The translations under genes were made by a program, and so were the position numbers. The notes below the pieces were generated by a model, which worked only from the letters and a program-made list of their open reading frames with translations, was not told the origin of the DNA and did not search any database. Below, piece after piece: positions 5,143 through 48,189 of a stretch of 64,000 nucleotides of DNA. Location: contig JAHOYZ010000006.1 of assembly GCA_019038695.1 (NCBI GenBank), forward strand, positions 17,112 through 81,111. Direction: 5' to 3'. How positions within the stretch are numbered: position 1 is the stretch's first letter; each line of letters starts with the position of its first letter. This DNA comes from Candidatus Zixiibacteriota bacterium. GTDB lineage: Bacteria; Zixibacteria; MSB-5A5; GN15; FEB-12.

Positions 5143-5174
5143 CACCCCCCTACGCCCTACCGCGTCCGAATATC

Positions 5175-31584: not shown

Positions 31585-32457
31585 TTAATCGACATGAAAA
31601 CCTATCCGGCGTCTCTTCAGTCGCTTAAGATACTCCCCCATCGAGACAAACGGGAAATCACTCAGAAGACGATCAAGTTTGCGAATGAAAACCGATGTTG
31701 ATCCGTACATACGGAAGCGTTGTATAGCTGATAAATCGTCAATTCTGGGCGGATCGGGATCGATTTCCCAGGGATGCATGTAGACCATTACGGGCCGGTT
31801 GTCGGCATTAAGACGTCGGATCATCCAGCGTGTATACCAATATGGCGAGTGACGCAGAAAACCGCCACCGCCGATAGGGATATTCTGTCCCAGCAACTGG
31901 TAAGTTGAAGCCGGAATTTCGTACAAACTACGACCACTTTTCAGGTTCATCTTGAACGTATGCCGAGGGCCATCAGGGATACCATAGATGTCATGCTTAA
32001 TAGGAAAAACGGAGCTATCGTACTCGAAGCCTAACTCGGCCAGAATTTCAAACGCCCAAGACGTGCTGGGATCAACCGACCAACTGGGTGCCCGATAACC
32101 ACTCGGCGAGCGACCGAGGGCACTAACGATAGCCCCTATCGCCATTTTGGTATCCTTGCGAAACGTATCCGGTTCCAGGGTGTTGACCCGGACGTGTGCA
32201 TAGCTGTGGCAGGCAATCTCGTGTCCTTCTCGTTGGATTTCACGGAGCAAATCAGGATAGCGATCAGCCACCCAACCAAGTGCAAACCAGGTGGCAGTGA
32301 CTTCTCGAAACCGGAACAGCTCCAACAGTCGACGTGAATTCCTGACTACCGTTGACTGCAGTTGGCCCCAATTATCGCGCGAATAACGATTAGATAAAAC
32401 TTCTACGGCGAACCACTCTTCAAGGTCTACTGTAAGAATGTTATTTGTGAACTCCAT
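31585..32457 (-). CDS. Polysaccharide deacetylase, PEP-CTERM/XrtA-locus type (with DUF3473-like C-terminus)
   Basis: ILTVDLEEWF, TWFALGWVADRYPDLLREIQREGHEIACHSYAH, and a C-terminal MHPWEIDP....I region. These resemble the TIGR03006-type deacetylases found in EPS loci. Confidence 0.75.
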   Translation of the reverse strand: MEFTNNILTVDLEEWFAVEVLSNRYSRDNWGQLQSTVVRNSRRLLELFRFREVTATWFALGWVADRYPDLLREIQREGHEIACHSYAHVRVNTLEPDTFRKDTKMAIGAIVSALGRSPSGYRAPSWSVDPSTSWAFEILAELGFEYDSSVFPIKHDIYGIPDGPRHTFKMNLKSGRSLYEIPASTYQLLGQNIPIGGGGFLRHSPYWYTRWMIRRLNADNRPVMVYMHPWEIDPDPPRIDDLSAIQRFRMYGSTSVFIRKLDRLLSDFPFVSMGEYLKRLKRRRIGFHVD

Positions 32458-32475
32458 TCGAGCTCATCTCAAAGA

Positions 32476-33297
32476 TCAGGGAAAACGTTTAGGAGTATCG
32501 TTGTTTTTCGAGGTCAACCGTGAGGCGGTTTGCCTGGAACTCCGGGATCGCGATTGTCTCTTTCTACGTCGATCTCCTCGTCGATGTTTCGCACTGTCGA
32601 CCGGACTATCGTAGTCATAGTACTTATAGTCGTAGTAATAAGGCAGACTGTTGTTCATGTTGTTGAGTACGACCCCTGTGATACGATTGCCATCGGCTCC
32701 AAGAATGTCCACAGCTCGCTCCACAACTTCTTTTTGCGTCGCTCCAGCCTTGACAACCAGTAATATAGCATCCATCTTCGGAGCCAGGAGCATCGGGTCC
32801 GATACGGGCAGAATCGGAGCGCAGTCTACGAAAATCAGATCATAGTAGAACTTTAAGTCATCAATGATGCGACTGATTACCTCAACATTGAACAACTCCG
32901 ATGGACGCTCACTACGCAAACCAGCATTAATGATGTGCAATTGCTCCAGATCGGTCTGTCTTACCACCTTAGCTGCGCTAAGGTCACCAGACAACACTTC
33001 GGCCAATCCCCTTTCACGATCCATACCGAATAACTTGTGGATCGAAGGACGTCGAAGATCGGTATCAATAATCAACGTCTTGAGCCCCTTCTGTCTGGCT
33101 GCGGTCAGGGCCAGGAACGAACATATAGTTGATTTCCCCTCAGCCAGCATGGCGGAAGTAATCATTATAGCCTTATTCTCAGACTCCGTTGAAAAACTCT
33201 GGATGCGCTGCAACAAACGGCGAAACTCCGTTGCTACGGGTAACTCAGGAGAGTAGAAGTCAAGAATTGAAACCGGCCGTCGTGCCATCAAAGTCAA
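32476..33297 (-). CDS. Polysaccharide biosynthesis tyrosine autokinase (BY-kinase, CpsD/CapB family)
   Basis: Walker A ITSAMLAEGKST, Walker A' LIIDTDLRRP, Walker B IFVDCAP, and a C-terminal Tyr cluster LPYYYDYKYYDYD. Confidence 0.85.
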   Translation of the reverse strand: MTLMARRPVSILDFYSPELPVATEFRRLLQRIQSFSTESENKAIMITSAMLAEGKSTICSFLALTAARQKGLKTLIIDTDLRRPSIHKLFGMDRERGLAEVLSGDLSAAKVVRQTDLEQLHIINAGLRSERPSELFNVEVISRIIDDLKFYYDLIFVDCAPILPVSDPMLLAPKMDAILLVVKAGATQKEVVERAVDILGADGNRITGVVLNNMNNSLPYYYDYKYYDYDSPVDSAKHRRGDRRRKRQSRSRSSRQTASRLTSKNNDTPKRFP

Positions 33298-34415
33298 CCT
33301 TTCTTGACTATGCGGTCGAGCGCCGCGTTCATCGCAGACAGTTCCTTCTTGGCTTCTTCATAACAAGTAGCTGCTATTCCAAGCGAGGGGTTCAGCTCTG
33401 TTGTCTTGCGGTAACTCATCACACCCTTTTCCCAAAGCACACGGGAGTACTCCAGGTAACAACGAGAGAGGTCGGAATATAGATCCACGTACATAGGATT
33501 ACCCTCGATCTTCCCCTCCAGGTATCGAATCTGATCGCGGAGCCTTTCCTCAGAAATCATCTGCGGATCCAGGGTTTGCTTCATATGGAAACCAGCAAAT
33601 TCTCGTCTGTGTTTTTCCTGTTTTTGTCGTCTGATACGGGAGAACAGCTCGAACGCTTTATCCAAGTCTGAGTTGGCAATGGCTCTCGTTGCTTCCTCGA
33701 ACAGGGAAGAATCATAGTCCGGGTAAATCAGTACAGCTTTCTTGAAACATTCCATCGCTTTGCTCACCGTCGCTGCGCGCGAAGAAGCGTCCGATTGCTG
33801 TGGTGCCTGCGCGAGTAGAACCATACCGAGATTAAAGTACGCATCGGCGTAGTACAAATTTAGTCCCAGAGCTTGTTCAAATTCACCTACTGCCTGATCG
33901 CTGGCTCCGTGCGCATGGAGAGCAAGACCAAGGTTGTTGCGGTAATCGGCAAAGCCTGGTTGTTGCTTTGCCGCTTCGTACAGCATCTTGGCGGCTTCCT
34001 CCGGTTGACCAAGGGCCAGTTCGGTCAAACCAAGGTAATTAAAAGCAAGGTGGCTCTGAGCATTCCGGACAGTCGCATTCTGGAACAACTCCCGAGCCTC
34101 AAGAAAATACTGTTTGTAATAAAAGGCGATGCCTAGCTGGGTCAGTGAGTCGGAACTGCCATCCTCCAGCGCGTGTCGAAAAGCCTCCATCAGATATTCG
34201 ATCTCGTTCTTCTTCTTTTCGTGAACGCTCTTCAGTAGCGAGACAACGTCATCCGCATCATAATCCTCAAGCTGCGGATGTGTATCCGTCTCGACCAGTA
34301 CGCCATTGATCCATACTTCAGACGAAATCGCAGCAGCGCTGATGTCATTGCGGGTCTTGATCAGGAACTCCCGATCACTCTCTACGAGCTTGCTCTTGAG
34401 CTGATAGGTTTCCAT
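33294..34415 (-). CDS. TPR repeat protein of the EPS locus
   Basis: Several TPR units (e.g. AFNYLGLTELALGQPEEAAKMLYEAAKQQP and ADAYFNLGMVLLAQ). There is a 4-nt overlap with the kinase gene. Confidence 0.65.
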   Translation of the reverse strand: METYQLKSKLVESDREFLIKTRNDISAAAISSEVWINGVLVETDTHPQLEDYDADDVVSLLKSVHEKKKNEIEYLMEAFRHALEDGSSDSLTQLGIAFYYKQYFLEARELFQNATVRNAQSHLAFNYLGLTELALGQPEEAAKMLYEAAKQQPGFADYRNNLGLALHAHGASDQAVGEFEQALGLNLYYADAYFNLGMVLLAQAPQQSDASSRAATVSKAMECFKKAVLIYPDYDSSLFEEATRAIANSDLDKAFELFSRIRRQKQEKHRREFAGFHMKQTLDPQMISEERLRDQIRYLEGKIEGNPMYVDLYSDLSRCYLEYSRVLWEKGVMSYRKTTELNPSLGIAATCYEEAKKELSAMNAALDRIVKKG

Positions 34416-34418
34416 AGT

Positions 34419-35921
34419 TTACTGTCGGATCCTCTTTAGTTTGTCGATTCGAGGGACGGTAGCCAACACTGGGAGATTCAAAATTTCTTCAATGTCGCTG
34501 ATCTTCTTGAACGAATTATCAAATATCTCTGCCAGAAACGCCGCAGCACCACCCAGCATTAGCCCTAACATCAGCCCCATCCCCAGAATTTTATTCTGAT
34601 CAGGCCAGAAATGAGTCAACGGAATCTTGGCTGGTTCAATAATCCGGTACTTGACTCGGTCCTTGGCACGCTCAGACAAAATCGTGACGGTCGCTTCCTC
34701 GGAGCGAAAGGCATCTCGATACTTGCGGGCATCAGCTACCCTGCGTTCGAGTTCGGATATTTCGGACTGAAGACGCGGTAATTGATTTATCCGCGCGTCC
34801 ACGCGAGCCACAGACCGTTCCATCTGACGTTTCCGTGATCGGAGCACATCGAGATGTTCTTCTACAATGAAATATTCCCTTAGCAACTCGCGTTGGTTTT
34901 CAGGATATGAGACAAATTGTGCATCTACGGCCTCACCAATAGCAAACACAAGTAAACGAAGATTATCATTGAGACGAATATTGACATTGATCACGTTCTG
35001 TTCGTTCCAGGCGTATTTTTCCATAAGACTGGCATAACGTATGACCTGAGCATCGATTTCGGAACGCAATTCCACGATCGTATCGGTGTACTTCACTCTT
35101 ACTTGTTCCAACCCCAGAGCTCGCAACTCGTCTAGCAGCCGCTGCCGGTCACTTTCATAGTCCTCTAACTCCAGTTGTGCTTTATCAATGTCGGAGAGGA
35201 CATCGCGACGATTCGAATCCGACGAAATGTTTTCCGGCAATTGCAATTGAGTCATACGCATCTGGGCAGCAGTGAGGGAATCAATCATCTGTTGATAGTA
35301 GAACTCGGTCTTTTCCAACTGCAGATCAGCGAATGACTGGTTGTCGAGAATCCTCTCCATCTCGTATCGTGTTTTCTCCCGTTCAAGAATCGCCGCTAAA
35401 GTGGTGACCATGTCGCGCGCTTCCACAGGATCGGGACAGACAGCCGTAAGGCGAATCTGGTCAGCCCCGGCAAAAGAAACCGACACCTGCTTCCGCAACT
35501 GGTCAACAAGAAGATTGAATTTCATTTGCTCCAAGGAAAAGGACGGATTTTCCTCTCGCAAACGAGCGGCCCGACGAATAATCTCCGGGTCCTGATCCAT
35601 CCCTTGTTCACGAATGAGCTGATGAAGATAAGTCTGTGAGGTTATTTCGATCTGAAGCGCACGCAGTCGTCGCCGACTTTCTTCACCACTTTCACGACCC
35701 GCTCGCTCACGACCAAGTATACTGACTAACTCTCGAGAAACATTATGCGGACGATCAATCCAAATGATAGTAGAAGATTGATACTTGGGAGCCAGGAAAT
35801 AGGTAACCCCATACGCTATGGCCGTCACGATGATCAAAGGAACAATCACCAGCCATTTGCGCTTGACTATAACCGAGATAATATCCCGTACGTTGACAGA
35901 TTTTTCGCGCTTGGTGTGCAT
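34419..35921 (-). CDS. Polysaccharide chain-length determinant protein (Wzz/GumC family)
   Basis: N-terminal Wzz region IISVIVKRKWLVIVPLIIVTAIAYGVTYFLAPKYQSST, a long coiled-coil periplasmic region, and a C-terminal TM GMGLMLGLMLGGAAAFLAE. Confidence 0.8.
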   Translation of the reverse strand: MHTKREKSVNVRDIISVIVKRKWLVIVPLIIVTAIAYGVTYFLAPKYQSSTIIWIDRPHNVSRELVSILGRERAGRESGEESRRRLRALQIEITSQTYLHQLIREQGMDQDPEIIRRAARLREENPSFSLEQMKFNLLVDQLRKQVSVSFAGADQIRLTAVCPDPVEARDMVTTLAAILEREKTRYEMERILDNQSFADLQLEKTEFYYQQMIDSLTAAQMRMTQLQLPENISSDSNRRDVLSDIDKAQLELEDYESDRQRLLDELRALGLEQVRVKYTDTIVELRSEIDAQVIRYASLMEKYAWNEQNVINVNIRLNDNLRLLVFAIGEAVDAQFVSYPENQRELLREYFIVEEHLDVLRSRKRQMERSVARVDARINQLPRLQSEISELERRVADARKYRDAFRSEEATVTILSERAKDRVKYRIIEPAKIPLTHFWPDQNKILGMGLMLGLMLGGAAAFLAEIFDNSFKKISDIEEILNLPVLATVPRIDKLKRIRQ

Positions 35922-35930
35922 AAGTCGGAT

Positions 35931-36896
35931 CTATTCCCTCGTACTATCTCCGTTGCTGTCCAAAAGATTCCAAATGAGCACCGTCGAAGTCACAACACCG
36001 ATCAGACCGGTGATGTTGGCAATACTCAAAATGCTGGAACGACGAGCCGCGACCACCACCACATCCTCTTTCTGCATCGTGTAACGAGTTAGTGTTCCAA
36101 GCCGGGTATATTTATCGAGATCAAGTTGAATGGTCTGACCGAAGTAGCCATCTTTGGTTATCACTTTCGTCTTGCGCAGATCAGCCATAGCGGTTGGACC
36201 ACCTGCCAGAGCTATAGCCTCAAGCACATCAACATTCTCCTCAAAGGTAATCGGACCCGGCAGCCCCACCGCACCCACAACGTAGATGAGGTTCTTCTTC
36301 TCTCGGGCTGTACCAAGTTCAGGCGACGGAAACCCGATGGGCATGCGTGGGATTTCAATCGTATCCTCACGACGAATCTTCGGCAATTCGTTCATTGTAC
36401 CGTTGGCTATAGCCGCACTCACATTCACGATTTCAACCTGACCCGCGTTGTCTCCACCTCGGATGATTGTTACGCGACTGAGGTCACCAATTTCGGTCAC
36501 TCCACCAGCTTCATTGATGATACTCCAGAGGTCCGGTATTTCTTCAAACGTCCACTTGCCCCCATCGTTCACCTGCCCCGTAACAAAAACGTATTGGTGG
36601 TTGAATGCCGTAACCCTGACCACCGCCTGTGAGATATTCTTGTTTAACCTGGACATTCGGCGAACAATGTCAACTTCGAGCTGCGCTGTAGTCCTGCCAG
36701 CAGCGTCGATTTCGCCCACCACGTCCAGAGATATCTTCCCATCTTGATTAACGCGTACATCGGAATTGAGAGCGGGGTCCTGCCAGAAACTGATACTCAA
36801 GATATCCCCCGTTCCCACCTTGTATTCACTGGCCTGAGCGCAGACTGCCATCATGACAACCAAACTCACAACGATCAACAAACAACATTTATTCAT
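35931..36896 (-). CDS. Polysaccharide export protein (Wza-like, Poly_export + SLBB domains)
   Basis: Signal peptide, then YKVGTGDILSISFWQDPALN...V.QDGKISL..VGEI.AAG.T. Two SLBB-like segments follow (VFVTGQVN..G and IYVVGAVGLPG). Confidence 0.82.
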   Translation of the reverse strand: MNKCCLLIVVSLVVMMAVCAQASEYKVGTGDILSISFWQDPALNSDVRVNQDGKISLDVVGEIDAAGRTTAQLEVDIVRRMSRLNKNISQAVVRVTAFNHQYVFVTGQVNDGGKWTFEEIPDLWSIINEAGGVTEIGDLSRVTIIRGGDNAGQVEIVNVSAAIANGTMNELPKIRREDTIEIPRMPIGFPSPELGTAREKKNLIYVVGAVGLPGPITFEENVDVLEAIALAGGPTAMADLRKTKVITKDGYFGQTIQLDLDKYTRLGTLTRYTMQKEDVVVVAARRSSILSIANITGLIGVVTSTVLIWNLLDSNGDSTRE

Positions 36897-37050: not shown

Positions 37051-38691
37051 CTAAACGGCTTCATCGAAAAGAACAGACTTATTGCGGCCACTGGACTTGG
37101 CTTCCAGAAGGGCCATGTCGGCAAAGTGAATGAGCTGCTTAGGAACGTCGGCGTGATCCGGGTAGACCGCTCCGCCCAGCGAAACTGTACACCCCAAACG
37201 CTCATCGGTACCAGGGATGACAAAACTCGTTCCCGCTACGTCACCCTTTAGCCGCTCCATGAATTTCAGACAGGTTGTAGCATCAGTTTCGGGCATGATA
37301 ATACAAAACTCATCCCCACCATAACGTGCGATAATGTCAATAGCACGAATTGATCTCCGGAGGATACCCCCCATCTGCTTGAGGACAGCATCTCCAGCCA
37401 GATGACCATAAGTATCGTTGGTGGCCTTCAGACCATCGAGATCGAAGATTATAAAAGCCAGTTTCCGGTCATAGCGCTTTGCTCGCTGGATCTCCTCGTC
37501 CAGACGACGCCTGAAATACCTCTGGTTGGCCAGACCTGTCAGTCCGTCGGTGTATGACATTTCCTCAATACGTTCAAACGATTCGGCATTGTCCATTAAA
37601 TCAGCGGCGCTCGTCCGAGCTACCTGCAGTTTGTCTTTCAAAGATACTTGTGGTGATCCTCCACTCCAGGCCAGCACACCAGGACAATCCGGAGTGAGTG
37701 AAAATGAAGCTATGCTTTCTAATCCTGCCTCTCGCAAAGACGAAGCCCAAACTCCCATCGGTGTTTGTTCGTCCGCCAATTGCCCAACCGGCATCGTCGC
37801 CTTGTCAACGACTTTCAGAAGATTATCCAGGCAATCCTGGTCGGGAGCCAGAAGGGCCCGAGAAAGACCTCCCTGGACCAATAGCGGGTGAGAATTTTTC
37901 TTACCATTCCTTCGATATAGAAAAGCAATCCGATTGATATTCAAGTCTTCGCGAATTGAGTGGATTAGCTTCGGGATTATCGTCTCCGCATTGCGATGTA
38001 GCACAAGTTTAAGTAAACTGCTTGGAGCAGCTACCGGCGGATTGACGGCAGAGATGGCATCGGGTGGGTTTACTTCGTCAAGCCGCTTCTGCATCCGTTC
38101 GATGCGCGATTCATGCCATTTAACATGATACGCAGCCGACAACGACTGCGCCATACTGGCCACCAGTACATTAAATGACCGTGAATCGGTATGAATGGTG
38201 CTGCGCACAAAGTAGACACCGTACAGATTATCACGCCAGAACACAGGGAAGAAAAGATCAACTTTGCTCTTGCTGATCGTCCGAAAATACCGGTCGGGCA
38301 ACACCCCCTGGAGGGCAGCTATTGGCCGCGGCAAGAAATCAGCTTCCAGCACTTTGGACAATTTGGTACCGGCAACAACCCTATACGCTCGCCGGTCGGG
38401 ATGTCCTAAGCCATGTTGATAGTTGAGCTCAAGCCAGCCCCGACGCTTACGTAAAAACAGAACCCGATCACATCCGCACGATTCCTCCAGTAGAGTGGAC
38501 ACCTTGCGGGCCACCTCGCCGATAGTTCCGCCAGCACTATTGGACAGCAGAAATCGGGAGAAATCGGACAGATTCATCCCCTTCATCACAGCCATCTGTC
38601 GCCTCTCGTTTCGAATCCTCGAAACGAGCATCAGCGACAGGATTCCGGTCAAAATGACCAGCGCAACTATAAGAACTGCTTGGTAATCCAT
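37051..38691 (-). CDS. Membrane-anchored diguanylate cyclase (GAF-like regions + GGDEF with intact I-site)
   Basis: N-terminal TM. The C-terminus reads YTDGLTGLANQRYFRRRLDEE...FIIFDLDGLKATNDTYGHLAGD...RAIDIIARYGGDEFCIIMPE. The RAID motif lies 5 residues before GGDEF, which matches the RxxD I-site. Confidence 0.85.
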   Translation of the reverse strand: MDYQAVLIVALVILTGILSLMLVSRIRNERRQMAVMKGMNLSDFSRFLLSNSAGGTIGEVARKVSTLLEESCGCDRVLFLRKRRGWLELNYQHGLGHPDRRAYRVVAGTKLSKVLEADFLPRPIAALQGVLPDRYFRTISKSKVDLFFPVFWRDNLYGVYFVRSTIHTDSRSFNVLVASMAQSLSAAYHVKWHESRIERMQKRLDEVNPPDAISAVNPPVAAPSSLLKLVLHRNAETIIPKLIHSIREDLNINRIAFLYRRNGKKNSHPLLVQGGLSRALLAPDQDCLDNLLKVVDKATMPVGQLADEQTPMGVWASSLREAGLESIASFSLTPDCPGVLAWSGGSPQVSLKDKLQVARTSAADLMDNAESFERIEEMSYTDGLTGLANQRYFRRRLDEEIQRAKRYDRKLAFIIFDLDGLKATNDTYGHLAGDAVLKQMGGILRRSIRAIDIIARYGGDEFCIIMPETDATTCLKFMERLKGDVAGTSFVIPGTDERLGCTVSLGGAVYPDHADVPKQLIHFADMALLEAKSSGRNKSVLFDEAV

Positions 38692-38750: not shown

Positions 38751-39425
38751 TCAGCGACGCCCCCGGGCAAACCGGAATCGAGAACGTCGGCGGACCAAAC
38801 CTCGTCGCCTTAAAACTCCGAAAACATCCCACCAACCAACCCGGTCGAACCCGCCCATACCTCGCAAATCCCGACCAATCTCCCCTATAGTGGCAAACGG
38901 GTCGTCTTTAACCAGACGCAGGATCGCCGTTTCAAGATTGCCGCCACCTAACATTCCACCGAGATCATTGTTTATTGTAAATTGATTGCTAGTAGATTTG
39001 GAGGTCAAATCATCACTGATCGAAACCGCTGTCAACCGTCCGCTTTTTTTTTTGGATGAAACCACTTCGGAGCCGTTGCCAAAATCGACACGGGCTTCGT
39101 CTATTGAAGTATAGGACCGTAGAACCTTATCAAACTCCAGCAGTTCATATATCTCGTATACATTCGGAATCATACTGGCCAGCTTGATATCGCCATCGTT
39201 GTCGCGAATGTCCTTGATATGGGAGATAAATATCCCCCATCCGGCAGAAGAGATATAATCTACGCCAGCCAGATCAATCAGAATCGCATATCGTTGGCGC
39301 TTCAGAAGCGAATCAATAACGGCTTCCAATTCACCAGCTGTCGCGGTATCAATAACACCATCCACCCGCACTTCGGAGACTCCCTGGCGGTCACCTTCGG
39401 AAAGCGATATTGAGATGTTATTCAT
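38751..39425 (-). CDS. STAS-domain anti-sigma-factor antagonist fused to a C-terminal winged-helix-like segment and poly-Arg tail
   Basis: aa 1-115 carry the STAS signature ILIDLAGVDYISSAGWGIF...LEFDKVL. aa 163-210 read LETAILRLVKDDPFATIGEIGRDLR...VFGVLRRRGLV. The tail reads RRRSRFRFARGRR. Confidence 0.75.
   Translation of the reverse strand: MNNISISLSEGDRQGVSEVRVDGVIDTATAGELEAVIDSLLKRQRYAILIDLAGVDYISSAGWGIFISHIKDIRDNDGDIKLASMIPNVYEIYELLEFDKVLRSYTSIDEARVDFGNGSEVVSSKKKSGRLTAVSISDDLTSKSTSNQFTINNDLGGMLGGGNLETAILRLVKDDPFATIGEIGRDLRGMGGFDRVGWWDVFGVLRRRGLVRRRSRFRFARGRR
39044..39053 (-). repeat. A10 homopolymer (T10 on + strand) in the linker of the STAS gene
   Basis: The minus strand reads TCC AAA AAA AAA AGC, encoding SKKKS at aa 124-128. 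I noticed no longer homopolymer in the window by eye. Confidence 0.95.
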
Positions 39426-39713
39426 ATGCTATATTCCGTGTCAAGACTTCTGATCTTCTGTTGCGTTCAATGAACCGTTTGGTAAGACCATAGGCAACAA
39501 AAAAGGTGAGGACAGTCAGGACACCTGAGTAACAGTCAGAGAAACGACGAGATTCTTGACCATTCGGGGTGATTGTTGTATTATCATAAACTGAAAGTGG
39601 TAAACCGTGTTTTTGAAACCTTTATATTGGAAATCTCGGATAATAAGAAAAGGAATAATATGCGATTCTGTTGAATTATTATAAAATCCTGAAAATATTG
39701 AAGGAGAACAGTT

Positions 39714-40448
39714 TTGAATTATCACAGTTTCATTATCCATTCAGTAAGAACGTTTATTACGTTTATTTTACTGACTAGCTGCTTGTTTGCACAGACTGAT
39801 GAAATAAACTGGGTAACAGTTGGTAAACCAATGCCTGATATTGCACTCCCCTCTTTCCAGGGCGAAGAAGTGAAGATTTCCCAATTCAAGGGAAAGAATG
39901 TAATGTTGATTTTCCCCAGGGGCTATGCGATGGAAGGAATGTGGTGCCCCAATTGCATATATCGACATGCTCAACTAGTAGAGTATGAGAAGAACAACAA
40001 GATTCGTGATCGCTACAACCTGGAAATTATATATGTACTTCCATATAGCAAAGAATTGATTCAGGATTTTCTAAATTCTTTCCCAGCGACTTTAGCACTA
40101 ATCAATGATTGGAAGAATCCTCCCGGTTATGAAGAAATGGACGAGGACGGAAAAGCATTTATCGATCATATCAGAGAAATTGCACCAGAAGATTTAACAA
40201 TGGACGAAGGAGAAGAGACGCCAACACCATTTCCAATCCTCATCGACGAGGACAGTGAATATTCCAAGGCTTTAGGAATATTCCGGACAGAGTGGTCAGG
40301 AAGTAAAGTGGATCAGAATATTCCCTCTGTTTATATAGTAGATAAGGATGGTATTCTTCAGTTTAAGAATATAGCTCAACATACTTTCGATAGACCTAGT
40401 CTTGATTATCTAGTTAAGATGTTATCGTATATATGCGGAGAGGAATAG
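39714..40448 (+). CDS. Secreted thioredoxin-fold protein (AhpC/TSA-redoxin family) with CxxC
   Basis: TTG start 8 nt after AAGGAG, followed by a signal peptide. LPSFQGEEVKISQFKGKNVMLIFPRGYAMEGMWCPNCIYRHAQL. About 33% G+C in a 120-nt hand count, against about 49% in a mutS sample. It is the only plus-strand gene between 5175 and 64000. Confidence 0.7.
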   Translation: MNYHSFIIHSVRTFITFILLTSCLFAQTDEINWVTVGKPMPDIALPSFQGEEVKISQFKGKNVMLIFPRGYAMEGMWCPNCIYRHAQLVEYEKNNKIRDRYNLEIIYVLPYSKELIQDFLNSFPATLALINDWKNPPGYEEMDEDGKAFIDHIREIAPEDLTMDEGEETPTPFPILIDEDSEYSKALGIFRTEWSGSKVDQNIPSVYIVDKDGILQFKNIAQHTFDRPSLDYLVKMLSYICGEE

Positions 40449-40619: not shown

Positions 40620-42629
40620 CTACTCGTCTTCTGTTACAGATTTCGTTTCGGTCATACCGTCGTCAGGACTGCATGACCTGGCAAGAACGAATGTTATGTC
40701 ATCGGATGGTTTGGTGAATCCGGCGAAATCGTCCAGAGCATCCAACAGACTCTTGCCCAGTATGGTCGTGGTAAGCGTTGCATCCCCACCGTTTAGTTGT
40801 TCCTCAAACAGCTTTGTGAGGCGATCCAGACCATACGTCTCCCCATCACGATTGGATGCCTCGGTGACACCATCGGTAAACATGAAGAAGAAATCCCCAT
40901 CCTCAAGTTCAAGGCTGACTTCTTCCAACCTATCCTCGAATGAGAACTCAAGCGTAACTGGCATCCCCACTGGCATTCCGGTGGGATTCAAAGTCTCAAT
41001 CGTACTGGAAGACCGTCGATAGAGAAGCATCGGATTATGCCCAGCCGATACGAAATCGAGCTTTCGCTGAGCGGTGTCATACATAGCCAGCATGACAGTA
41101 ATAAACATGCCCGGAGGAATGTTGTGGCGCAGGTAATCGTTGACCTTTATAAGCGTCACCTTGGCCGAAGCTTCGTGCGCCGCATGGATCTGTATGACCG
41201 TACGTAGCATCGACATCACCAGCGAAGCTGGTACCCCTTTGCCGGAAACATCGGCAACTACAAGACAGTACCGACCGGGATCAGTCTCAAAGACATCATA
41301 GAGATCTCCTCCGATAACTTCCGCCGCCCGATAGAATGTGTTTAGTTCCAGCCCCGGCAGATTCGGTAGTTTGTTCGGCAGCAGAGTCTTCTGGATGTGT
41401 GAGGCTACTTCAATTTCCTTGGCCATCTTCTCGCGCGCCACTATATTCTCACGATCCTGACTCACACGCGTCATCAGTACATTGAACGCCTTGGATATTT
41501 CGAAGAACTCCTCAGCTCCCTCCAGTGGCAATTCCGTCGTTAGATCACCGGAGGCAAGTCGCCTGACGCGCTGTGTGATTTTAACTATCGGATCTACAAA
41601 ATAGCTGGAGAGTAGATAGACTCCAAGAACGCCAAATAGCAACAGCACCAGAGTCAGCAACACGGCATCCTCCCGCGATTGAGCTAACTCACCCTCAATG
41701 TAGGCGGCACTGTATGTGATATGCACCATACCTGCCATACCGGTGTTAGTAACTATGGGAACCATCAAATAGAACAAGTCAGCTCCATCAACAATCAATC
41801 GCTGTGGAGTTGATTGGTCGTTCTTGTCAATACCGTCGGGGAAAGAGTATCCCTTGCGAATATTGTGGATGTCATCGGAATGCGCCACAATATTACCTGC
41901 CGGACTGGTGATCACTACCAGTCGGAGGAACTCAGAATTCGATTTGGCATAACTCACAACTAACTCATCAAACTCGGCATCAGAGCGACGGTTTATCGTA
42001 TAACCTGCGGCCTGCGCTGCAATAGTACTCCCCAGAGAGGCTACTGTTTCGTCCAAGTGCGATTGAACTTGACGTGATATTCGATCATCGACGTATATAG
42101 CAGAACCAGCCAGAATAATCAGCACAATCATAGTGGTCCAAACCGAGAACTTAACCCGCAACCCAGTCATCCGTCTTAACAGAGGAACACTACCAGCCGA
42201 TGAGGGACGAATGCGTTTAATCATCCGCAATTCATTGTAGCCAGCCGACGAAATGTATTCGACCGAATCCATAATCTTGCCGATCATATAGAACCCCAGG
42301 CCACCCTTACGGCCGGATTCGACCAGATGCTCCAGATCTATGGTACCTTTTTCGGAAGCCTGAAATGATCTGCCGGTATCAATTAGGGATAAGACAATAA
42401 GCTTGCGATAGATTACAATTCGGAGCCGGATAGTCCCCTTCTCATAAAGGTACGCATGCCGGATAATGTTGGTGGCCCCTTCTTCAGTGGCCAACAAAAC
42501 GGCGTTGACATCTCGGGATGACATGCCAGCAGCCACGCAGCTTTCCCGCGCTGTTCGCTGCAGACTGTCGAGATATTTCTCTTCCGCAATGAACTCGGCT
42601 GTTATCTCTTTTACAGGACGTCGCCACAT
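40620..42629 (-). CDS. Fused partner-switching enzyme: RsbW/SpoIIAB-like kinase domain, TM, extracytoplasmic sensor, TM, HAMP and PP2C (SpoIIE/RsbU-type) phosphatase
   Basis: aa 1-140 carry HATPase_c_2-like motifs (N-box EEGATNIIRHAY, IDTGRSF, GRKGGLGFYMIGKIMD). TM helices lie at about 161-180 and 321-345. HAMP reads DPIVKITQRVRRLASGDLTTELP...FNVLMTRV. PP2C reads EVIGGDLYDVF......LVVADVSGKGVPASL...FVSAGHNP...FMFTDGVTEA. Confidence 0.75.
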   Translation of the reverse strand: MWRRPVKEITAEFIAEEKYLDSLQRTARESCVAAGMSSRDVNAVLLATEEGATNIIRHAYLYEKGTIRLRIVIYRKLIVLSLIDTGRSFQASEKGTIDLEHLVESGRKGGLGFYMIGKIMDSVEYISSAGYNELRMIKRIRPSSAGSVPLLRRMTGLRVKFSVWTTMIVLIILAGSAIYVDDRISRQVQSHLDETVASLGSTIAAQAAGYTINRRSDAEFDELVVSYAKSNSEFLRLVVITSPAGNIVAHSDDIHNIRKGYSFPDGIDKNDQSTPQRLIVDGADLFYLMVPIVTNTGMAGMVHITYSAAYIEGELAQSREDAVLLTLVLLLFGVLGVYLLSSYFVDPIVKITQRVRRLASGDLTTELPLEGAEEFFEISKAFNVLMTRVSQDRENIVAREKMAKEIEVASHIQKTLLPNKLPNLPGLELNTFYRAAEVIGGDLYDVFETDPGRYCLVVADVSGKGVPASLVMSMLRTVIQIHAAHEASAKVTLIKVNDYLRHNIPPGMFITVMLAMYDTAQRKLDFVSAGHNPMLLYRRSSSTIETLNPTGMPVGMPVTLEFSFEDRLEEVSLELEDGDFFFMFTDGVTEASNRDGETYGLDRLTKLFEEQLNGGDATLTTTILGKSLLDALDDFAGFTKPSDDITFVLARSCSPDDGMTETKSVTEDE

Positions 42630-42688: not shown

Positions 42689-44515
42689 TCATTCGCCCGG
42701 TTGAGACTGCATTCGCAGTCGGGCCTGCTCGATATTGCGAAGCGTACTTTCGTTGTTGGGGTAAGCCTCGAGGACTTTCTGCCAGGCTTCGATAGCCAAT
42801 TCGTACTGTTTGTCACGCATATATCGAAGACCGTCAAGATAGAGAGGCCATATCACCCGGTCACGCTGCATCATCTCCAGGGTAGGAGGATGCTCCAGTG
42901 CGGTATCGATACGCTCGATATATGCCTTCGATACCGGCTCATCCGGGTTGGCAGAGAGAATTGAGGAAAATAAACTCCTGGCCTCATCGTAATGGCCAAT
43001 TCTGAACTGCGTTATCCCTTCATTGAGCATCCGGGCCAGGTCCATCTTGCTGGCTGCCTCCTCCTGCGACTGGCGGACGGTAGTGTTTTCCGGGTCCAGA
43101 TATAAAACGCGGGAATACAATTCGATGGTCTTCACTATTTCACCCCGCCGCTCGGCCTGATGTGCCTCCAGCAAACAGGAATCAATCTCTCTGGCTACCG
43201 CCTTCGAAACAGTATCTCTTAGATTAAGAGCCAGAGTGTTCTCGGGCTCGTAATCCAGAATCAATTCAAGCATATCCTCGGCTGCGGGATAATATTTCTT
43301 CTCAAAGAAACTCTGCGCCTGAGCAAAGAAAGCGTCAATAGTCATCGCCTGGTCCCGCTCAGCTTCACGGACTCGTTGCTCCTGCTTAAGCTGGGAGGTT
43401 CGTGCCCGTTCAATCGCTGCTACTGCCCTCAGAATCCGCTGGTTGTCTTCGTCAAAGGCCAAAGCACGCTGATAGTTGACAAGGGCTGAATCGAGAACAT
43501 AACTCTCGTAGAAATCGTCCGCCTTCTGGCGATAGAAATCAAACTGCCGACGACGCTCCACATCCAGCATATCGGTACTCCGGCGCTGATCCTCCTGCTG
43601 CCTGCGCCTAATCTGGTCGGAAACTGTTGTCCCCAACAACAGTGCCACCGAGAAGCGATGGCTATCCTCCACGTAATCGTGAACCTTATAGGCATAATCC
43701 AGTAGAAGACGTTGATATCGCAACCCTATGCCAAAGGACAGATTGTCACGGTCGTATCCGGTTCGAAGTGAGTAGTGGTCATCGAACAACAATTCTCCAC
43801 CGCAATGAACACGGACCGATCTGTCTTCTGTTTTTTCCATCTCCACCGAAAGTGACGACTCAAGCCGCTCCGACCACCTCAAATTGGTTGCTGCCAATCC
43901 AACCGCAAGTGTTACCGGAAGCGTCTCCTTGACAGTCTGCAGTTGCAACGTGACCGGAACAATATCCCGCGCCACAACTCCGGCTTGTACATATTGACTC
44001 AACCTGGCCGTCATTCCAAAATCCAGTCCAATGCCATAGTCGGAATAAGTATCCAGTTCCTGATTCACAATCTTCAGTGACACACCGGCTGCGAGACCAC
44101 CCTGGAGTCGGCGTCCATAGGACAAAAGGAACTGCGAGTAGGAATAGTCGAACATACCTGTCCGGCGATAGTCTTCCCGCCTGATAATGTCGTTGGTGCC
44201 GAGCCGCATGTAGGCCAGACCGAAGCCACCCTGACTCGGAGTGGGGTAAGCCCAGGCAACGAAGTCATAAATCGTGCCCTCAAAAAGAGACATGTGCATG
44301 AAGCTGACTTCATGATAATCAAGTTGTGGAAGTCCGGCTGGATTATAGAAAATGGTGGATGCGTCATCAGCTATAGCTGTGAAAGCACCACCCATCCCAA
44401 GAGCGCGAGCGCCTGCACCGACAGTGAATGGAGACTCACGCCCGGCATCTCCTGCATGCACAGTCGCACAACCCAACGTTAACACCATTAGGAGTATGAT
44501 ACATCGGGTCGTCAT
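42689..44515 (-). CDS. PorV/PorQ-like outer-membrane beta-barrel fused to a ~300-aa coiled-coil/TPR domain
   Basis: Signal peptide. aa ~25-295 start with VGAGARALGMGGAFTAIADDASTIFYNPAGL and end in RFSVALLLG, a barrel-like pattern. aa ~300-608 hold a coiled coil plus TPR units (ALVNYQRALAFDEDN, AIEAWQKVLEAYPNN). Its start overlaps the stop of the 1225-aa gene (ATGA). Confidence 0.6.
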   Translation of the reverse strand: MTTRCIILLMVLTLGCATVHAGDAGRESPFTVGAGARALGMGGAFTAIADDASTIFYNPAGLPQLDYHEVSFMHMSLFEGTIYDFVAWAYPTPSQGGFGLAYMRLGTNDIIRREDYRRTGMFDYSYSQFLLSYGRRLQGGLAAGVSLKIVNQELDTYSDYGIGLDFGMTARLSQYVQAGVVARDIVPVTLQLQTVKETLPVTLAVGLAATNLRWSERLESSLSVEMEKTEDRSVRVHCGGELLFDDHYSLRTGYDRDNLSFGIGLRYQRLLLDYAYKVHDYVEDSHRFSVALLLGTTVSDQIRRRQQEDQRRSTDMLDVERRRQFDFYRQKADDFYESYVLDSALVNYQRALAFDEDNQRILRAVAAIERARTSQLKQEQRVREAERDQAMTIDAFFAQAQSFFEKKYYPAAEDMLELILDYEPENTLALNLRDTVSKAVAREIDSCLLEAHQAERRGEIVKTIELYSRVLYLDPENTTVRQSQEEAASKMDLARMLNEGITQFRIGHYDEARSLFSSILSANPDEPVSKAYIERIDTALEHPPTLEMMQRDRVIWPLYLDGLRYMRDKQYELAIEAWQKVLEAYPNNESTLRNIEQARLRMQSQPGE

Positions 44516-47500
44516 TTCACCACCGCAAGCTTGAGTCGTGCCGTTTCACCCGTGTTCACGACCCGGATGGAGACAATATAAACACCGTTGCAAACTACCT
44601 GACCATCGTTGTTGAGACCATCCCACTCAATCACATGTTCTCCAGCTCCATTGTCCTGGCTGGATATGTCGCGAGCATACACTTCTTCGCCAGTCAACGT
44701 GAAGATACGGAACTCGATATCTGAGGCCGCCGTCAATTCGTACGAAAACTCGACTGGTGCTTTGGTCGGATCGACCGGGTTATTGCGAACCAAAAACGAC
44801 TCGGAAATAGATGATCCCTTGACGACGAACGTCATCGCCAACAGCGTCCCGTCACCACTTTCGGAAACAACATCAACAGTCTCCCCCTCCTGTATTCCAC
44901 GGTCATAAGTAGCCAGAATATGACGGCTCTCGAGAAGCAATTCGAACTGGTCGATATTACTTTCACGGATTGCCGCCACAAACACCAGACTGCATGTCAC
45001 CTGAGCCTCAATAATGAGATCCTCGAAGACTGCCGTCATACGGTCATTGCCGCTTAGGTCAGCCGCTATCGGCAAACCGTTCCGGTAGAAGACAGATGCG
45101 CCCATGTCGATGATTTCGGAAACATCGAGAGACTGGTCGCCCGGACCACGAAGCGTAAAAGACATCTCATCCAACGACACAGCAGTAGCATCAGCTGTCC
45201 CACCGTTAGTCAGAATCAGCAGGAACAATTCCTTGTCTTGCCCCGGAAGAAGCAGATTTGAGCCGGGCAGTTCAGCTCTGCCCAACAACTCAGCATCGAA
45301 ATGCTGTACTGTTATCTCTATGAAGAACGAGCTGTCACCCGCACTGGCCCGTACACCAGTGTTGATGTCAATTGGCATCGATGTTAATGTGAAAGTAAGA
45401 ATAATGTTCGTGTCAAATGATGGCGACTGGAAATCCAATTCCATGTGCTGATCCACGCTAATGATACCGGTCGGGCTGTATCCATCACCAAGGTCGATCC
45501 CTCCGGTCGTCAGGAGGTACTCTCCATCCGTAGTCGCGGCCTGCCCCTCATTGACGAGTTCAATTATCAGGGAGAACGCCTGGTCTTGATCGACCAGACT
45601 GTTTTCAACTCCGACCAGACTGTAGTTCAAAACCAGTTGTGCCGGAGTTTCTATGACAGCCGTCGCCATATCATCAATCGGATCATCCGCTCCCACATGA
45701 GGCGAAGCGACGGCAACTCTGAAGATTTCTGCTACCACCGGTTGATCGGCAGCAATAATATCAAATATAAGTTCCGCAGTATCATCGGGCTGGATGACAT
45801 CCACGGTAAAAAGGGAATCGAAAGCCGAGTTACCGTCACTGCGCAGAACCATATCCAACGGACCCAGGATTGTACCCGATGTATTTGCCACCCGCGCTCG
45901 CACTTGAAAAGCCTGACCCGTATTGACGTAAGGTGTGTTGAAGGTAAGCACTTCAGTACTTATAATCCTGACTATCGGAGCTGCTGTCACCGGAACCGCC
46001 GTCGTACTCAGATCAGCTACAAAACCAAACGAAGCCCACGCGCCAGGAATCAGAAATTCGAAACCGGCCTCAAAACGTAACATCTCTCCCTGCTGAGTTA
46101 TGGGAATGAAAACCGGATCGGTCGTCACCAAATTCAGCCCGGGATACAACGTCATATCAGCAATACGCAACAGAGCAGCAGACAAGAAATCTTTCCCATG
46201 TATTTCTATTATCGCCCCTGAAGGATCGACCGGCACGCTATACTCACCGTCAAGGTTCACAGTGAATCCAAATGAACTCTCGCGACCTGCACTTACCATA
46301 GCTGGGCCGAAACTCCCCTCGACATATGTAACTTCGATCTCGGTAAGGACAAAAACAGAATCGATAATCTTGTGGGTTATCAGATAGGGAACTCCAGCAG
46401 ATACATAAGCATAATCAAGCACGACATCATACCACCCGGAAGGCAACAAATCGACACCCGGCACCAAAACCGATACATGTTCATGGCTAATAACGACGCC
46501 AGTAACATGACTGAAACCCGATGTCTCCGTCAGAAAAACCTCTGTAGCCCCACCGTCGCTTGTTAAGGCAACACGCATGGTGGGACCTATCGTGAAATCC
46601 GGAGGATCAACGGCGTGAATGTCTAATGATATCTCTGACGTGATCCCCGGGTACAAGCTATCGGGCCAGAATAAACCGGGGACGACCTCCAGTTCAACCG
46701 GCTCGATCGGTTCAACCACGACTACTGTCAACTCAACCTGATTTGTTGTAGTAAACATCATCCCATCAACGTTGAAATCGGCCTCAAGTACAACCGTCAG
46801 GTTATCTTCGAACAATTCAGACCTTGGCCCTGCCAGTAGTATCTCTACCGTATCGACCAAACCATTTGCACCAGCTGCGAAACCAACTGAAGCCGTTAAC
46901 CCGCTGGTAAGTGCCAGAGAGACTGTCGAAGTCTGTGGCGTGTTATATCCATTATTCGTGACAACAACTTTAACCAACGTGCCAATCGTAGGAGCGATTG
47001 AGATCAACGGTGCATTGTCGGCATTGAGAACTTCCAGAATGTCATACCCGCTGAATGAGACCACCTGGCCGGAGGATACCAATCCGTCGTCTGTTTCGAC
47101 CGTCACGGTCGTGACAACAGTAGGACCCGTGTAAACTATTCCGATAGCATCAAGATCAACGACACCCTCAAAAAGTAAACCGGCATTATCAATTACGGCC
47201 GGAGCGAGGTTACCAACGTTGGTCGATAGATAGACCGGATTCGTAGTGAGATCATAATCAATTTTGAGATTGTCAAAAGCATCTAATAAAATCAGGCTTG
47301 CTTCAGGCAAAAGAGGATAACCCACAATCTGTTCGGGACTAATGTCCAACTCGAACCGAGCCAGCGCCCCCGGCAAAACAGAGATCATGCCTGACAATCC
47401 AGTCACGTTTCCGACCCTTGCCATAACCCTGCCCTCGCCGACGGTCGTAACGTGAAGCATCGCACCGGAGAAATACCCTATCGGATCGGAACCCTCTTCA

Positions 47501-48189
47501 AGCGTCCAATAGACATCCGGAGAAGGAATCAAACCACCTTGGCTGTCCCGCACAACAGCGTTGAAAACAATACTCTCCCCCGCTCTGAGGACCTGATTGT
47601 CCGATGGTTCCACATCAAGTGACACGGGTGCTCCAGACCGTATTTCCAACGGATCAGAAATAGCCGGTCCCGCTAACACCGAACCGCCATTCCTCATGGC
47701 AAGGCCTCCAAACATGTAGTCACCGACTACCTGTGGATTGCCTACGATCTCAAGATAAACACCTATGGAAACTGTCGGCGGCACTTCATCAGGAGGTTGC
47801 CAACCCGATTTCTTAAGAATCACAACGACCATGTCATCGGTCGTCTCGACTGCCTTTATTCTGTAGTCAGCGGCAATGGAGTTGTGCGTAAGAGTCGCAG
47901 TCACAACTGCCGATAGATCGTATCCTTCCGGAAATGAGAAAGCAAACGCGCCCCCATTCAGCTTCTTAAAGTCAGCCCGATCCATCAAGAAGGAGAAACT
48001 ATAGCCAGCCAAATGCCCGACGATCGAATCGGTGGCCTGAACCCTGAAATTGTCAAACGTACCCACCGGAGGGCACGAGGGTGATCTGAAGATCGCACTT
48101 GCCTCTGTCGTTGGATCGGCAGTAACTACCGAGCCGCAGAACATCAGTAAAAGGATCAGGAAGAAGGAATAACCGAAGTTAATTTTCAT
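44512..48189 (-). CDS. Giant secreted Ig-repeat adhesin-like protein with FlgD-Ig/T9SS-like C-terminal domain
   Basis: Signal peptide MKINFGYSFFLILLLMFCGSVVTA. A Big_2-like segment reads VSLDVEPSDNQVLRAGESIVFNAVVRDSQGG...VTTVGEGRVMARVG. The C-terminal ~95 aa read VEFSYELTAASDIEFRIFTLTGEEVYA......GEHVIEWDGLNNDGQVVCNGVYIVSIRV...ARLKLAVVK. Confidence 0.65.
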   Translation of the reverse strand: MKINFGYSFFLILLLMFCGSVVTADPTTEASAIFRSPSCPPVGTFDNFRVQATDSIVGHLAGYSFSFLMDRADFKKLNGGAFAFSFPEGYDLSAVVTATLTHNSIAADYRIKAVETTDDMVVVILKKSGWQPPDEVPPTVSIGVYLEIVGNPQVVGDYMFGGLAMRNGGSVLAGPAISDPLEIRSGAPVSLDVEPSDNQVLRAGESIVFNAVVRDSQGGLIPSPDVYWTLEEGSDPIGYFSGAMLHVTTVGEGRVMARVGNVTGLSGMISVLPGALARFELDISPEQIVGYPLLPEASLILLDAFDNLKIDYDLTTNPVYLSTNVGNLAPAVIDNAGLLFEGVVDLDAIGIVYTGPTVVTTVTVETDDGLVSSGQVVSFSGYDILEVLNADNAPLISIAPTIGTLVKVVVTNNGYNTPQTSTVSLALTSGLTASVGFAAGANGLVDTVEILLAGPRSELFEDNLTVVLEADFNVDGMMFTTTNQVELTVVVVEPIEPVELEVVPGLFWPDSLYPGITSEISLDIHAVDPPDFTIGPTMRVALTSDGGATEVFLTETSGFSHVTGVVISHEHVSVLVPGVDLLPSGWYDVVLDYAYVSAGVPYLITHKIIDSVFVLTEIEVTYVEGSFGPAMVSAGRESSFGFTVNLDGEYSVPVDPSGAIIEIHGKDFLSAALLRIADMTLYPGLNLVTTDPVFIPITQQGEMLRFEAGFEFLIPGAWASFGFVADLSTTAVPVTAAPIVRIISTEVLTFNTPYVNTGQAFQVRARVANTSGTILGPLDMVLRSDGNSAFDSLFTVDVIQPDDTAELIFDIIAADQPVVAEIFRVAVASPHVGADDPIDDMATAVIETPAQLVLNYSLVGVENSLVDQDQAFSLIIELVNEGQAATTDGEYLLTTGGIDLGDGYSPTGIISVDQHMELDFQSPSFDTNIILTFTLTSMPIDINTGVRASAGDSSFFIEITVQHFDAELLGRAELPGSNLLLPGQDKELFLLILTNGGTADATAVSLDEMSFTLRGPGDQSLDVSEIIDMGASVFYRNGLPIAADLSGNDRMTAVFEDLIIEAQVTCSLVFVAAIRESNIDQFELLLESRHILATYDRGIQEGETVDVVSESGDGTLLAMTFVVKGSSISESFLVRNNPVDPTKAPVEFSYELTAASDIEFRIFTLTGEEVYARDISSQDNGAGEHVIEWDGLNNDGQVVCNGVYIVSIRVVNTGETARLKLAVVK

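Follow-up and report, generated by a model that had tools for sequence, protein, structure and literature searches.

What does a STAS-domain protein of the anti-sigma factor antagonist type gain from a long C-terminal extension, and is the extension always part of its product? The question is raised by a gene on a 64,000-nucleotide stretch of a Candidatus Zixiibacteriota genome (GenBank assembly GCA_019038695.1, contig JAHOYZ010000006.1, positions 17,112 to 81,111), which is called the window throughout. The open reading frame (ORF) at 38751-39425 on the minus strand encodes a protein of 224 amino acids (aa), consisting of a STAS domain, a disordered linker, a predicted three-helix domain and an Arg-rich tail. 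The linker contains three consecutive lysines, and the main feature of the gene, overlooked in the original prediction made from the sequence of the stretch, is that this KKK patch is a conserved run of ten adenines (A10) with the anatomy of a recoding site. Judged from the comparison of related genes, the tract probably lets the cell make a STAS-only and a STAS-helix-turn-helix (STAS-HTH) protein from one gene. The best explanation as a whole, namely a partner-switch protein that works without a sigma factor and exists in tract-derived short and long isoforms, has in our estimate a probability of about 0.62.

The comparison included 83 related loci; the clade of the window has 51 loci and a sister clade 32. 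When the C-terminal domain (C-domain) was extracted from these loci, the STAS and C-terminal halves of the 24 closest relatives were recovered as separate, overlapping tblastn segments in different frames, and the junction of the two halves was the KKK patch, that is, the A10 at the DNA level. The tract was found in all 51 loci of the clade, as A10 in 45, as A9 in five and as A11 in one. It is the only A/T run of at least nine within the window, and all 45 A/T runs of ten or more in 990 kb of related loci fall at this site. Relative to the STAS domain, the C-domain lies in frame in 28 of the 51 loci, including the window (fused loci), in the -1 frame in 22 and in the +1 frame in one (split loci). 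The tract is equally long in fused and split loci, thus the frame is set by the flanking sequence and not by the tract itself. Throughout the clade the long frame continues for 282-324 nt beyond the tract, and the other two frames are closed by stops 4-44 nt after it, within 14 codons (medians 13 and 32 nt), in 51 of 51 loci. The hidden stops of the window copy are given in Table 1; the product that would result from one A fewer ends with KKKADG, nearly the same as the genomic end of the first ORF (ORF1) in two split relatives (KKKADE in L021 and KKKAPE in L018).

In the split loci the out-of-frame C-domain is under purifying selection: its ORF (ORF2) is intact with all signatures in 23 of 23 cases, and the median ratio of non-synonymous to synonymous rates (dN/dS) is 0.25, with saturated synonymous sites and non-synonymous differences (pN) of 0.17-0.4. 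A short motif, [VIL]-T-x-[LV]-[TS]-V-[VI]-[DE], follows the tract immediately, in fused as well as in split loci, in the latter as x-x-[VIL]-T-x-[LV]-[TS]-V-[VI]-D in the -1 frame. The codons of the motif (GTA-ACN, TTG-ACN) are also the source of the hidden stops, so that constraint on the amino acids is inseparable here from constraint on the nucleotides. Past the tract of the split loci there is usually no in-frame start codon at all, or none within the first 100 nt. Furthermore, the lysines at the tract are always encoded by AAA, whose share among the Lys codons of the related loci is about 0.47, and it is very improbable that three AAA codons would occur in all 50 loci by chance, even with shared ancestry. 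Selection appears to maintain the A10 at the nucleotide level.

Neighbour-joining trees built from the neighbouring cyclase and sensor indicate that a fused gene with the tract is the ancestral state. A large, deeply diverged subclade is split, the window and L017 represent reversions to the fused state, and L066/L081 and L050 are independent splits, amounting to at least 4-6 transitions between the two states, with the tract kept in all of them. The split state recurs in an independent sample of one species, and the split loci are mostly Illumina assemblies from different projects, as judged by their MEGAHIT- or SPAdes-style contig names. The single +1 case (L054, 1605-1640) lacks a G after the tract compared with its close relatives L071, L074 and L077, which could be a true variant needing a different slip or an assembly error. 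In the public annotation of L018 (3561-3953 and 3911-4237, NCBI RKX28456.1) ORF1 is a 130-aa 'hypothetical protein' and the C-domain ORF is unnamed, and an ORF2-type fragment (P0128), which starts with VGGKKKS, is labelled 'predicted TIM-barrel enzyme'. The family is systematically mis-annotated, as split or truncated, in many metagenome-assembled genomes of Zixibacteria.

The intact and selected ORF2, the motif at the tract, the missing start codons and the recurrence of the split state make sequencing error, pseudogenisation and independent translation of ORF2 poor explanations. It is barely credible to us that nothing is recoded, KKK being a lysine patch and the split loci being gene fissions, pseudogenes or assembly errors with an ORF2 that is translated alone or never. 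Such an account would be in line with the automatic annotation, in which ORF1 is the only gene called (a 130-aa hypothetical protein), and with the GTG or TTG codons 15-50 nt past the run in some split loci, but residue conservation begins at the run, 5' of any start codon, some loci have no usable start, the split loci of these different projects form one coherent clade, and AAA is used in every locus though it makes up only about 47% of the Lys codons. Phase variation at the DNA level is very unlikely as well, because the tract length is nearly invariant and does not fix the frame. In that case slipped-strand mispairing would toggle a population between STAS-only and STAS-HTH genotypes, instead of providing two isoforms at once; homopolymers of nine or more are classic phase-variation tracts, A9, A10 and A11 variants all occur, and the frame relationship has switched repeatedly in the tree. 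However, the length is the same in fused and split loci and it is the flanking indels that set the frame, the split state is stable over a deeply diverged subclade and identical in two independent samples of one species, and near-identical genomes (L007/L008/L009 and L071/L074/L077) show no length differences. The length polymorphism among close relatives that sets the frame in a phase-variable contingency locus was thus not found.

As to the mechanism, slippage of RNA polymerase on the tract is favoured on the anatomy of the site, because the tract has about the length of the polymerase hybrid and not seven nucleotides, neither a conserved downstream structure nor an Rfam element was found with it, and a hairpin is enriched upstream. 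The alternative that ribosomes shift to the -1 frame on an A AAA AAA or A AAA AAG heptamer within the tract, as in E. coli dnaX, we consider unlikely. It would agree with the in-phase X XXY YYZ heptamer of every split locus (A AAA AAG is in phase in three), with the -1 direction of the shift needed in 22 of 23 split loci, and with the G-rich stretches often found just 5' of the run. Against it, seven adenines suffice for a -1 shift, yet most loci hold ten, and no conserved stem-loop or pseudoknot, such as the downstream stimulatory structure of the E. coli dnaX type, was detected in the 60 nt 3' of the run (mean z = -0.05 over 46 loci), nor any Rfam frameshift element at the tract. A hairpin abutting the tract on its upstream side (ΔG of -7 or lower, ending within 4 nt) was present in 22 of 46 loci (48%) compared with a background of 13%, a difference inflated by the relatedness of the loci. 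It lies in the 30 nt before the run (about 39054-39083 of the window, minus strand), resembles the arrangement of stem-loop-stimulated transcriptional slippage and suits this process better than a ribosomal shift.

Among known recoding systems the closest parallels are dnaX (tau/gamma in T. thermophilus, programmed -1 ribosomal frameshifting at A AAA AAG in E. coli) and the Shigella mxiE/spa genes. Shared with them are a coding homopolymer of at least nine, close stops in both non-zero frames, a common N-terminus, a truncated domain-only form, and a long form that is in frame or trans-frame depending on the species. In T. thermophilus dnaX an A/T run of nine with stops near in both non-zero frames gives heterogeneous mRNAs and a long to short ratio of about 1:1, and reversed arrangements, in which the long product needs the shift, are known for dnaX in other bacteria (PMC5009743). 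Of the features of the T. thermophilus type, a conserved homopolymer of nine or more, close stops in both frames and a trans-frame part under selection were found here. Unlike in those systems, the gene is a signalling STAS gene and not one of replication or secretion, the tract is A10 and not A9, the two products are predicted from gene sequences, and a sister clade has no tract.

The ORF with a STAS domain and an extension of about 110 aa stands as originally proposed, and the segments quoted then (DLAGVDYISSAGWGIF, LEFDKVL, LETAILRLVKDDPF through RRRGLV, and the terminal RRRSRFRFARGRR) are all present in the 224-aa translation, which is identical to the NCBI entry 'MAG: STAS domain-containing protein [candidate division Zixibacteria]' (P0001). 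Residues 14-111 match Pfam STAS (PF01740) with E = 2.7e-15 and 56.5 bits against a cutoff of 22.6, and the NCBIfam model TIGR00377, "anti-sigma factor antagonist", is matched with 58.4 bits against 53.45. Over its full length, the STAS domain aligns with antagonists of solved structure (TM1442, SpoIIAA and RsfB; 1sbo, 1th8 and 1auz are among the PDB entries aligned), and its invariant loop YISSAGWG falls over the phospho-serine loops YMDSAGLG of TM1442 and FMDSSGLG of SpoIIAA. S59 and S60 are both invariant in a 30-sequence family alignment, S60 stands at the phospho-serine position, and of the two we take S60 to be the acceptor by analogy to RsbV and SpoIIAA. The net charge is -10 in the STAS domain (isoelectric point 4.5), close to neutral in the HTH core and +6 to +8 in the tail. 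The linker (approximately aa 118-160, about 45 aa) is variable in the 30-sequence alignment except for the KKK patch and the short motif that follows it; the Ser/Lys/Asn-rich composition noticed earlier is correct for the window copy and peculiar to it, and does not extend to the family.

The extension is shared by more than 100 full-length relatives of 221-233 aa with 50-60% identity (search of 5.8 billion proteins), therefore it is no chance read-through. The named ones are nearly all labelled Zixibacteria. Relatives were found in at least 519 species-representative genomes, with the extension in all of the best 80, and when only the extension was searched with phmmer (1.84 billion representatives), nothing but the STAS-extension family was matched. 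Some 56-105-aa matches of the extension-only search were taken for contig-end fragments, a reading that was given up, since many of them, once the frames were known, were more easily explained as ORF2 calls from split loci. Within the last approximately 60 residues of the 30-sequence alignment D175, P176, F177, W199, L205, L210, R216 and F217 are invariant, and L169, I180, E182, W198 and F202 nearly so. In the full-length AlphaFold2 model the predicted local distance difference test score (pLDDT) is above 90 for the STAS domain and 81-86 for the helices at 161-174, 180-189 and 198-207, and it drops below 50 in the tail and below 35 in the linker. The domain-only model (aa 155-224) has a mean pLDDT of 83.5, its best version turns the tail into a fourth helix, and across both models the three helices reach 81-92. 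Being conserved and folded, as homologue comparison and structure prediction agree, the extension does not have the unconserved, fully disordered character that would have spoken against the original prediction.

The fold is HTH-like in the models, and a wing is not predicted: no strands of a beta-hairpin follow the third helix in the full-length or the domain-only model. Of the winged-helix resemblance first proposed, the HTH part is thus supported by the Foldseek list, the Pfam matches and hhalign, and the wing is replaced by a tail that is disordered or helical. Single C-domain sequences gave no or marginal matches in Pfam scans, and a profile search of the PDB gave one weak match to an AsnC-family HTH (E = 0.46). 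Foldseek against the PDB returned no match with E below 1, in a list composed almost entirely of HTH and winged-helix DNA-binding domains, including ArgR-N, Lrp/AsnC, Fur/PerR, BlaI/MecI, FapR, Sleeping Beauty RED, Mos1, Pax8 and CENP-B. PF01498 (HTH_Tnp_Tc3_2) was matched by 17 of 29 family members, the best with E = 4.6e-5 and all below the gathering score; the window copy reached 13.2 bits against the threshold of 31.5 (E = 0.11). When a profile of 78 C-domains was aligned by hhalign with the HTH_32 segment of a kinase-phosphatase of the sister clade, 61 columns gave a score of 31.7 (P = 3.4e-5, probability 72%), compared with at most 16.5 for 60 column shuffles and 12.9 for the reversed profile. 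From these similarities we conclude that the C-domain is probably a distant homologue of the second HTH in transposases of the Tc3/IS630 type. With the HTHs of the Tc3, Tc1-mariner and IS630 group (PF01498 and PF13565, HTH_32) it shares three helices, here predicted, and the pattern h-L-x-x-h-x-x-x-P-(aromatic)-x-(T/S)-h-x-E-h, which is followed via a loop by the third helix with its final L-x-x-x-x-L and by basic residues. It differs from them in scoring below the Pfam threshold, in having no DDE domain, in being a single HTH and not one of a bipartite pair, and in the unusual WW with which helix 3 begins. Any DNA binding by the present family is putative.

The sister clade has a further bearing on the domain and on the isoforms. 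Since it keeps the STAS-HTH fusion without the tract, the long isoform seems to be common to the whole family and the short one to have arisen in the clade of the window. The sensor of the module carries a long C-terminal extension in 17 of the 32 sister-clade loci (L024, L026, L027, L028-L036 and others). In L027 this sensor (3342-6254) has HTH_23, HTH_28 and HTH_32 domains in its extension, and a gene for a BcsQ/ParA-like ATPase (6251-6994) lies directly upstream of the STAS-HTH gene. Through this arrangement of the sister clade, the module may be connected with DNA or with spatial positioning.

We propose the following scheme. The module would consist, in Zixibacteria, of a membrane sensor with an RsbW-type serine kinase and a PP2C phosphatase, the STAS protein and a membrane diguanylate cyclase, without a sigma factor, and the sensor is predicted to phosphorylate and dephosphorylate the STAS protein at S60. 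Slippage on the A10, which is favoured, or -1 ribosomal frameshifting would yield two products from the one gene: a short STAS-only protein of about 130 aa, ending at the hidden stops just past the tract, and the long 224-aa STAS-HTH protein with the linker motif, an HTH of the DNA-binding class and the polybasic Arg/aromatic tail. In the window the long form would be the standard in-frame product and the short form would need the slip, and in 22 related species the situation would be reversed. The STAS-only form might behave like HsbA, BgrV, SiaC or SypA, as a classical antagonist that binds the kinase domain and/or as a regulator of the cyclase. The long form would add a DNA-binding or other polyanion-binding output, its availability being set by the phosphorylation of the STAS domain and by sequestration at the membrane kinase. 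A more far-reaching version, which we put forward only as a doubtful speculation, is that the tract sets the ratio of a STAS-HTH transcription factor to a STAS-only decoy, both competing for the membrane kinase/phosphatase and the cyclase. The antagonist would then itself carry the DNA-binding output, and the ratio, long-biased in fused and short-biased in split species, would serve as an evolvable gain control on the commitment to exopolysaccharide and biofilm.

A nucleic-acid-binding output, as suggested from the first, is made plausible by the HTH-like character of the C-domain, seen in the fold list, the PF01498 matches and the profile comparison, and DNA is the favoured ligand of the HTH and tail as we infer it. 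The adjacent, always co-located GGDEF cyclase is the obvious alternative output, by analogy to HsbA-HsbD, BgrV-BgrR and SiaC-SiaD (PMC8457831). It is possible, if somewhat unlikely, that the C-domain and tail do not bind DNA and instead dock on a protein (the kinase-phosphatase, the cyclase or a ParA/BcsQ-like ATPase), bind acidic lipids or cyclic di-GMP (c-di-GMP), or autoinhibit the protein via the acidic STAS domain. Helix 3 is mostly hydrophobic with variable exposed positions, the sensor and the cyclase are both membrane proteins, the tail beside the cyclase gene is polybasic-aromatic (RFRF/RFRY) with RxxxR spacings as in a Cle-like Arg-rich region, STAS domain and tail are oppositely charged, and in the clade without the run the gene of the BcsQ/ParA-like ATPase directly precedes the STAS-HTH gene. 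All detectable relatives in sequence and fold are, however, DNA-binding HTH domains, and the sensor of the clade without the run has a paired HTH_23 and HTH_32 module of the same class, which indicates nucleic acid as the shared ligand.

Several observations weigh against the proposed two-isoform, DNA-directed protein. The HTH assignment remains below the usual thresholds, with all Pfam matches under the gathering score, an hhalign probability of 72% and Foldseek E-values above 1. Helix 3 (GWWxVFxIL) is unusually hydrophobic, its exposed positions differ between species, and this character is atypical for a sequence-specific recognition helix. A brief look upstream of the STAS gene showed a promoter-like -35 element and no clear palindrome that could be an operator. 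The sister clade retains the fusion in 32 loci in which the A-run is absent, so that the two-isoform arrangement is not essential to the module. The A10 is unremarkable by itself in the window (0.15 expected, and at least one in 9 of 100 shuffles), therefore the case rests on the comparative data, in which the P-values for codon usage and for hairpin enrichment are inflated by the kinship of the loci; the hairpin is also weak in the window copy (z = 0). Both the occurrence and the ratio of slippage are deduced from comparative anatomy.

Parts of the scheme have precedents in other partner switches. SypE and SypA of Vibrio fischeri are a fused kinase/phosphatase and a STAS protein in an exopolysaccharide locus, and the target of SypA is unknown (PMC8256260). 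The likeness extends to the RsbW-like serine kinase and PP2C in one protein, the STAS protein in a polysaccharide or biofilm locus and the lack of a sigma partner. SypE, in contrast, senses by a central receiver domain, whereas the sensor here has a transmembrane (TM)/sCache/HAMP arrangement; SypA is STAS-only, and the syp locus has neither an adjacent cyclase nor a recoding tract. Membership in the SypE/SypA system was rejected, as the sensor gave no Response_reg match and its substrate has the extension of about 110 aa. STAS or STAS-like proteins that control cyclases and biofilm are known in HsbR-HsbA-HsbD of P. aeruginosa, BgrV-BgrR of S. meliloti and SiaABCD (PMC8457831). The HsbA, BgrV and SiaC systems resemble the proposed module in that the cyclase regulator, a STAS or STAS-like protein, has its phosphorylation controlled by a kinase and a phosphatase of the partner-switch type, but the kinase and phosphatase are fused here, and none of the STAS proteins of those systems has an HTH extension. 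The HAMP-PP2C sensor and the cyclase give weak matches to the SiaA and SiaD models of NCBIfam, which stay far from the cutoffs (NF038263, SiaA, 75.1 against 700; NF038266, SiaD, 141.7 against 290), and the switch protein belongs to PF01740 and not to the DUF1987 of SiaC, so the module was not assigned to SiaABCD. For the antagonist class in general, a STAS match above threshold, the phosphorylatable Ser loop and a nearby kinase and PP2C were found, and a sigma factor as final target was not, among the large ORFs scanned at 28-49 kb and in the related loci.

Table 1. Positions in the window of the STAS-HTH gene, of its recoding-related elements and of the neighbouring genes of the module
Feature	Position	Strand	Evidence or remark
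Full ORF, 224 aa, long STAS-linker-HTH-Arg-tail isoform	38751..39425	-	In-frame product in the genome of the window
STAS domain, aa 1-117	39075..39425	-	Pfam and TIGR00377 matches; PDB alignments 1sbo/1th8/1auz; pLDDT >90
A10 homopolymer (T10 on the plus strand), K125-K127 and first base of S128, TCC AAA AAA AAA AGC	39044..39053	-	Candidate programmed slippage site
Start of the long-isoform-specific part, aa 128-140, with the motif after the tract (here LTAVSISD)	39006..39043	-	Semi-conserved; modelled as disordered
Hidden TGA in the minus-one-A frame, KKK-ADG then stop, predicted STAS-only product of about 130 aa	39032..39034	-	Same frame as the genomic STAS frame in L018/L021
Hidden TGA in the plus-one-A frame, KKKK-RTVDSGFDQ then stop (KKKKRTVDSGFDQ), predicted product of about 138 aa	39013..39015	-	Frame analysis
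Predicted three-helix HTH-like domain, aa 161-211, DPF/GWW/L..L signatures	38793..38945	-	AlphaFold2, Foldseek, per-member Pfam scan, hhalign with controls
Arg-rich tail VRRRSRFRFARGRR	38754..38792	-	Family consensus [RK][RK][SA]RF[RQK][YF]; net charge +6 to +8
Promoter-like element TTTnCnTTGCC	39493..39504	-	About 75 nt before the ATG in the window, 75-85 nt over the loci; recognised visually in most of 36 loci
Cognate sensor, 669 aa: HATPase_c_2 (RsbW-like kinase), TM/sCache, HAMP, SpoIIE-type PP2C	40620..42629	-	Pfam; upstream position kept in nearly all loci
Membrane GGDEF diguanylate cyclase, 546 aa, GGDEF intact, RAID I-site	37051..38691	-	Domain scan; directly downstream of the STAS gene
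XrtA/PEP-CTERM-type exopolysaccharide set: Wza-like exporter, chain-length determinant, TPR protein, BY-kinase, polysaccharide deacetylase	31585-36896	-	Directly downstream of the cyclase; TIGR03006 above cutoff

The genes around the STAS gene form a conserved module (Table 1) that stands at the head of an XrtA-type exopolysaccharide locus. The order PorV/TPR, kinase-PP2C, STAS with extension, GGDEF and Wza is kept in almost all of the 83 related loci, and wherever the flanking sequence of a clade locus is long enough, the gene immediately 3' of the STAS gene is that of the GGDEF cyclase, which is probably a partner or an output of the STAS protein. The Pfam matches of the sensor are strong (HATPase_c_2 with E = 9.9e-20 and SpoIIE with 5e-46). 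It had been noted earlier that the locus contains no sigma/anti-sigma pair. The sigma part of this statement is correct as far as the scan reached: no sigma factor gene occurs among the large ORFs scanned at 28-49 kb, the other ORFs of the window being unscanned, or in the related loci. The anti-sigma part has to be corrected, because the upstream gene holds an RsbW-type HATPase_c_2 kinase fused to PP2C and the locus therefore does possess an anti-sigma-type component.

A gene for an AhpC/TSA-type redoxin (39714-40448, plus strand) stands between the genes of the kinase-PP2C and the STAS protein, in the opposite orientation to both. It occurs at that place in none of the 83 related loci, thus it looks like a lineage-specific insertion that parts the STAS gene from the sensor gene. 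The promoter-like element TTTnCnTTGCC is often accompanied by a -10-like hexamer 17-19 nt downstream (in the equivalents of L001-L082), and on this evidence the STAS gene may be the first of a transcription unit of its own. Upstream of the sensor there are two genes that are syntenic with the module in related genomes, one (42689-44515, minus strand) for a PorV/PorQ-family domain fused to TPR repeats and the other (44512-48189, minus strand) for a protein of 1225 aa whose C-terminal domain is of the type IX secretion style.

Each ingredient of the system is known by itself, namely STAS partner switches, STAS-regulated cyclases, transposase-type HTHs and slippage on homopolymers. Our literature search found no paper that links STAS proteins or anti-sigma antagonists, or Zixibacteria, with frameshifting or slippage, and relative to the literature found, two things are new, the combination of STAS and HTH in one protein and a partner-switch gene that has a conserved recoding tract. 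To our knowledge, conserved recoding in cellular, non-mobile bacterial genes is limited to a handful of cases such as dnaX, prfB, copA and mxiE/spa (a list taken in part from PMC5009743). If the proposed explanation is true, a signalling gene would join these cases, and the two configurations, kept across dozens of species, would provide a natural experiment on the evolution of isoform ratios. A STAS protein with a built-in HTH output beside a cyclase and an exopolysaccharide locus would, in addition, offer a testable answer to the question of what the targets of sigma-less switches such as SypA may be.

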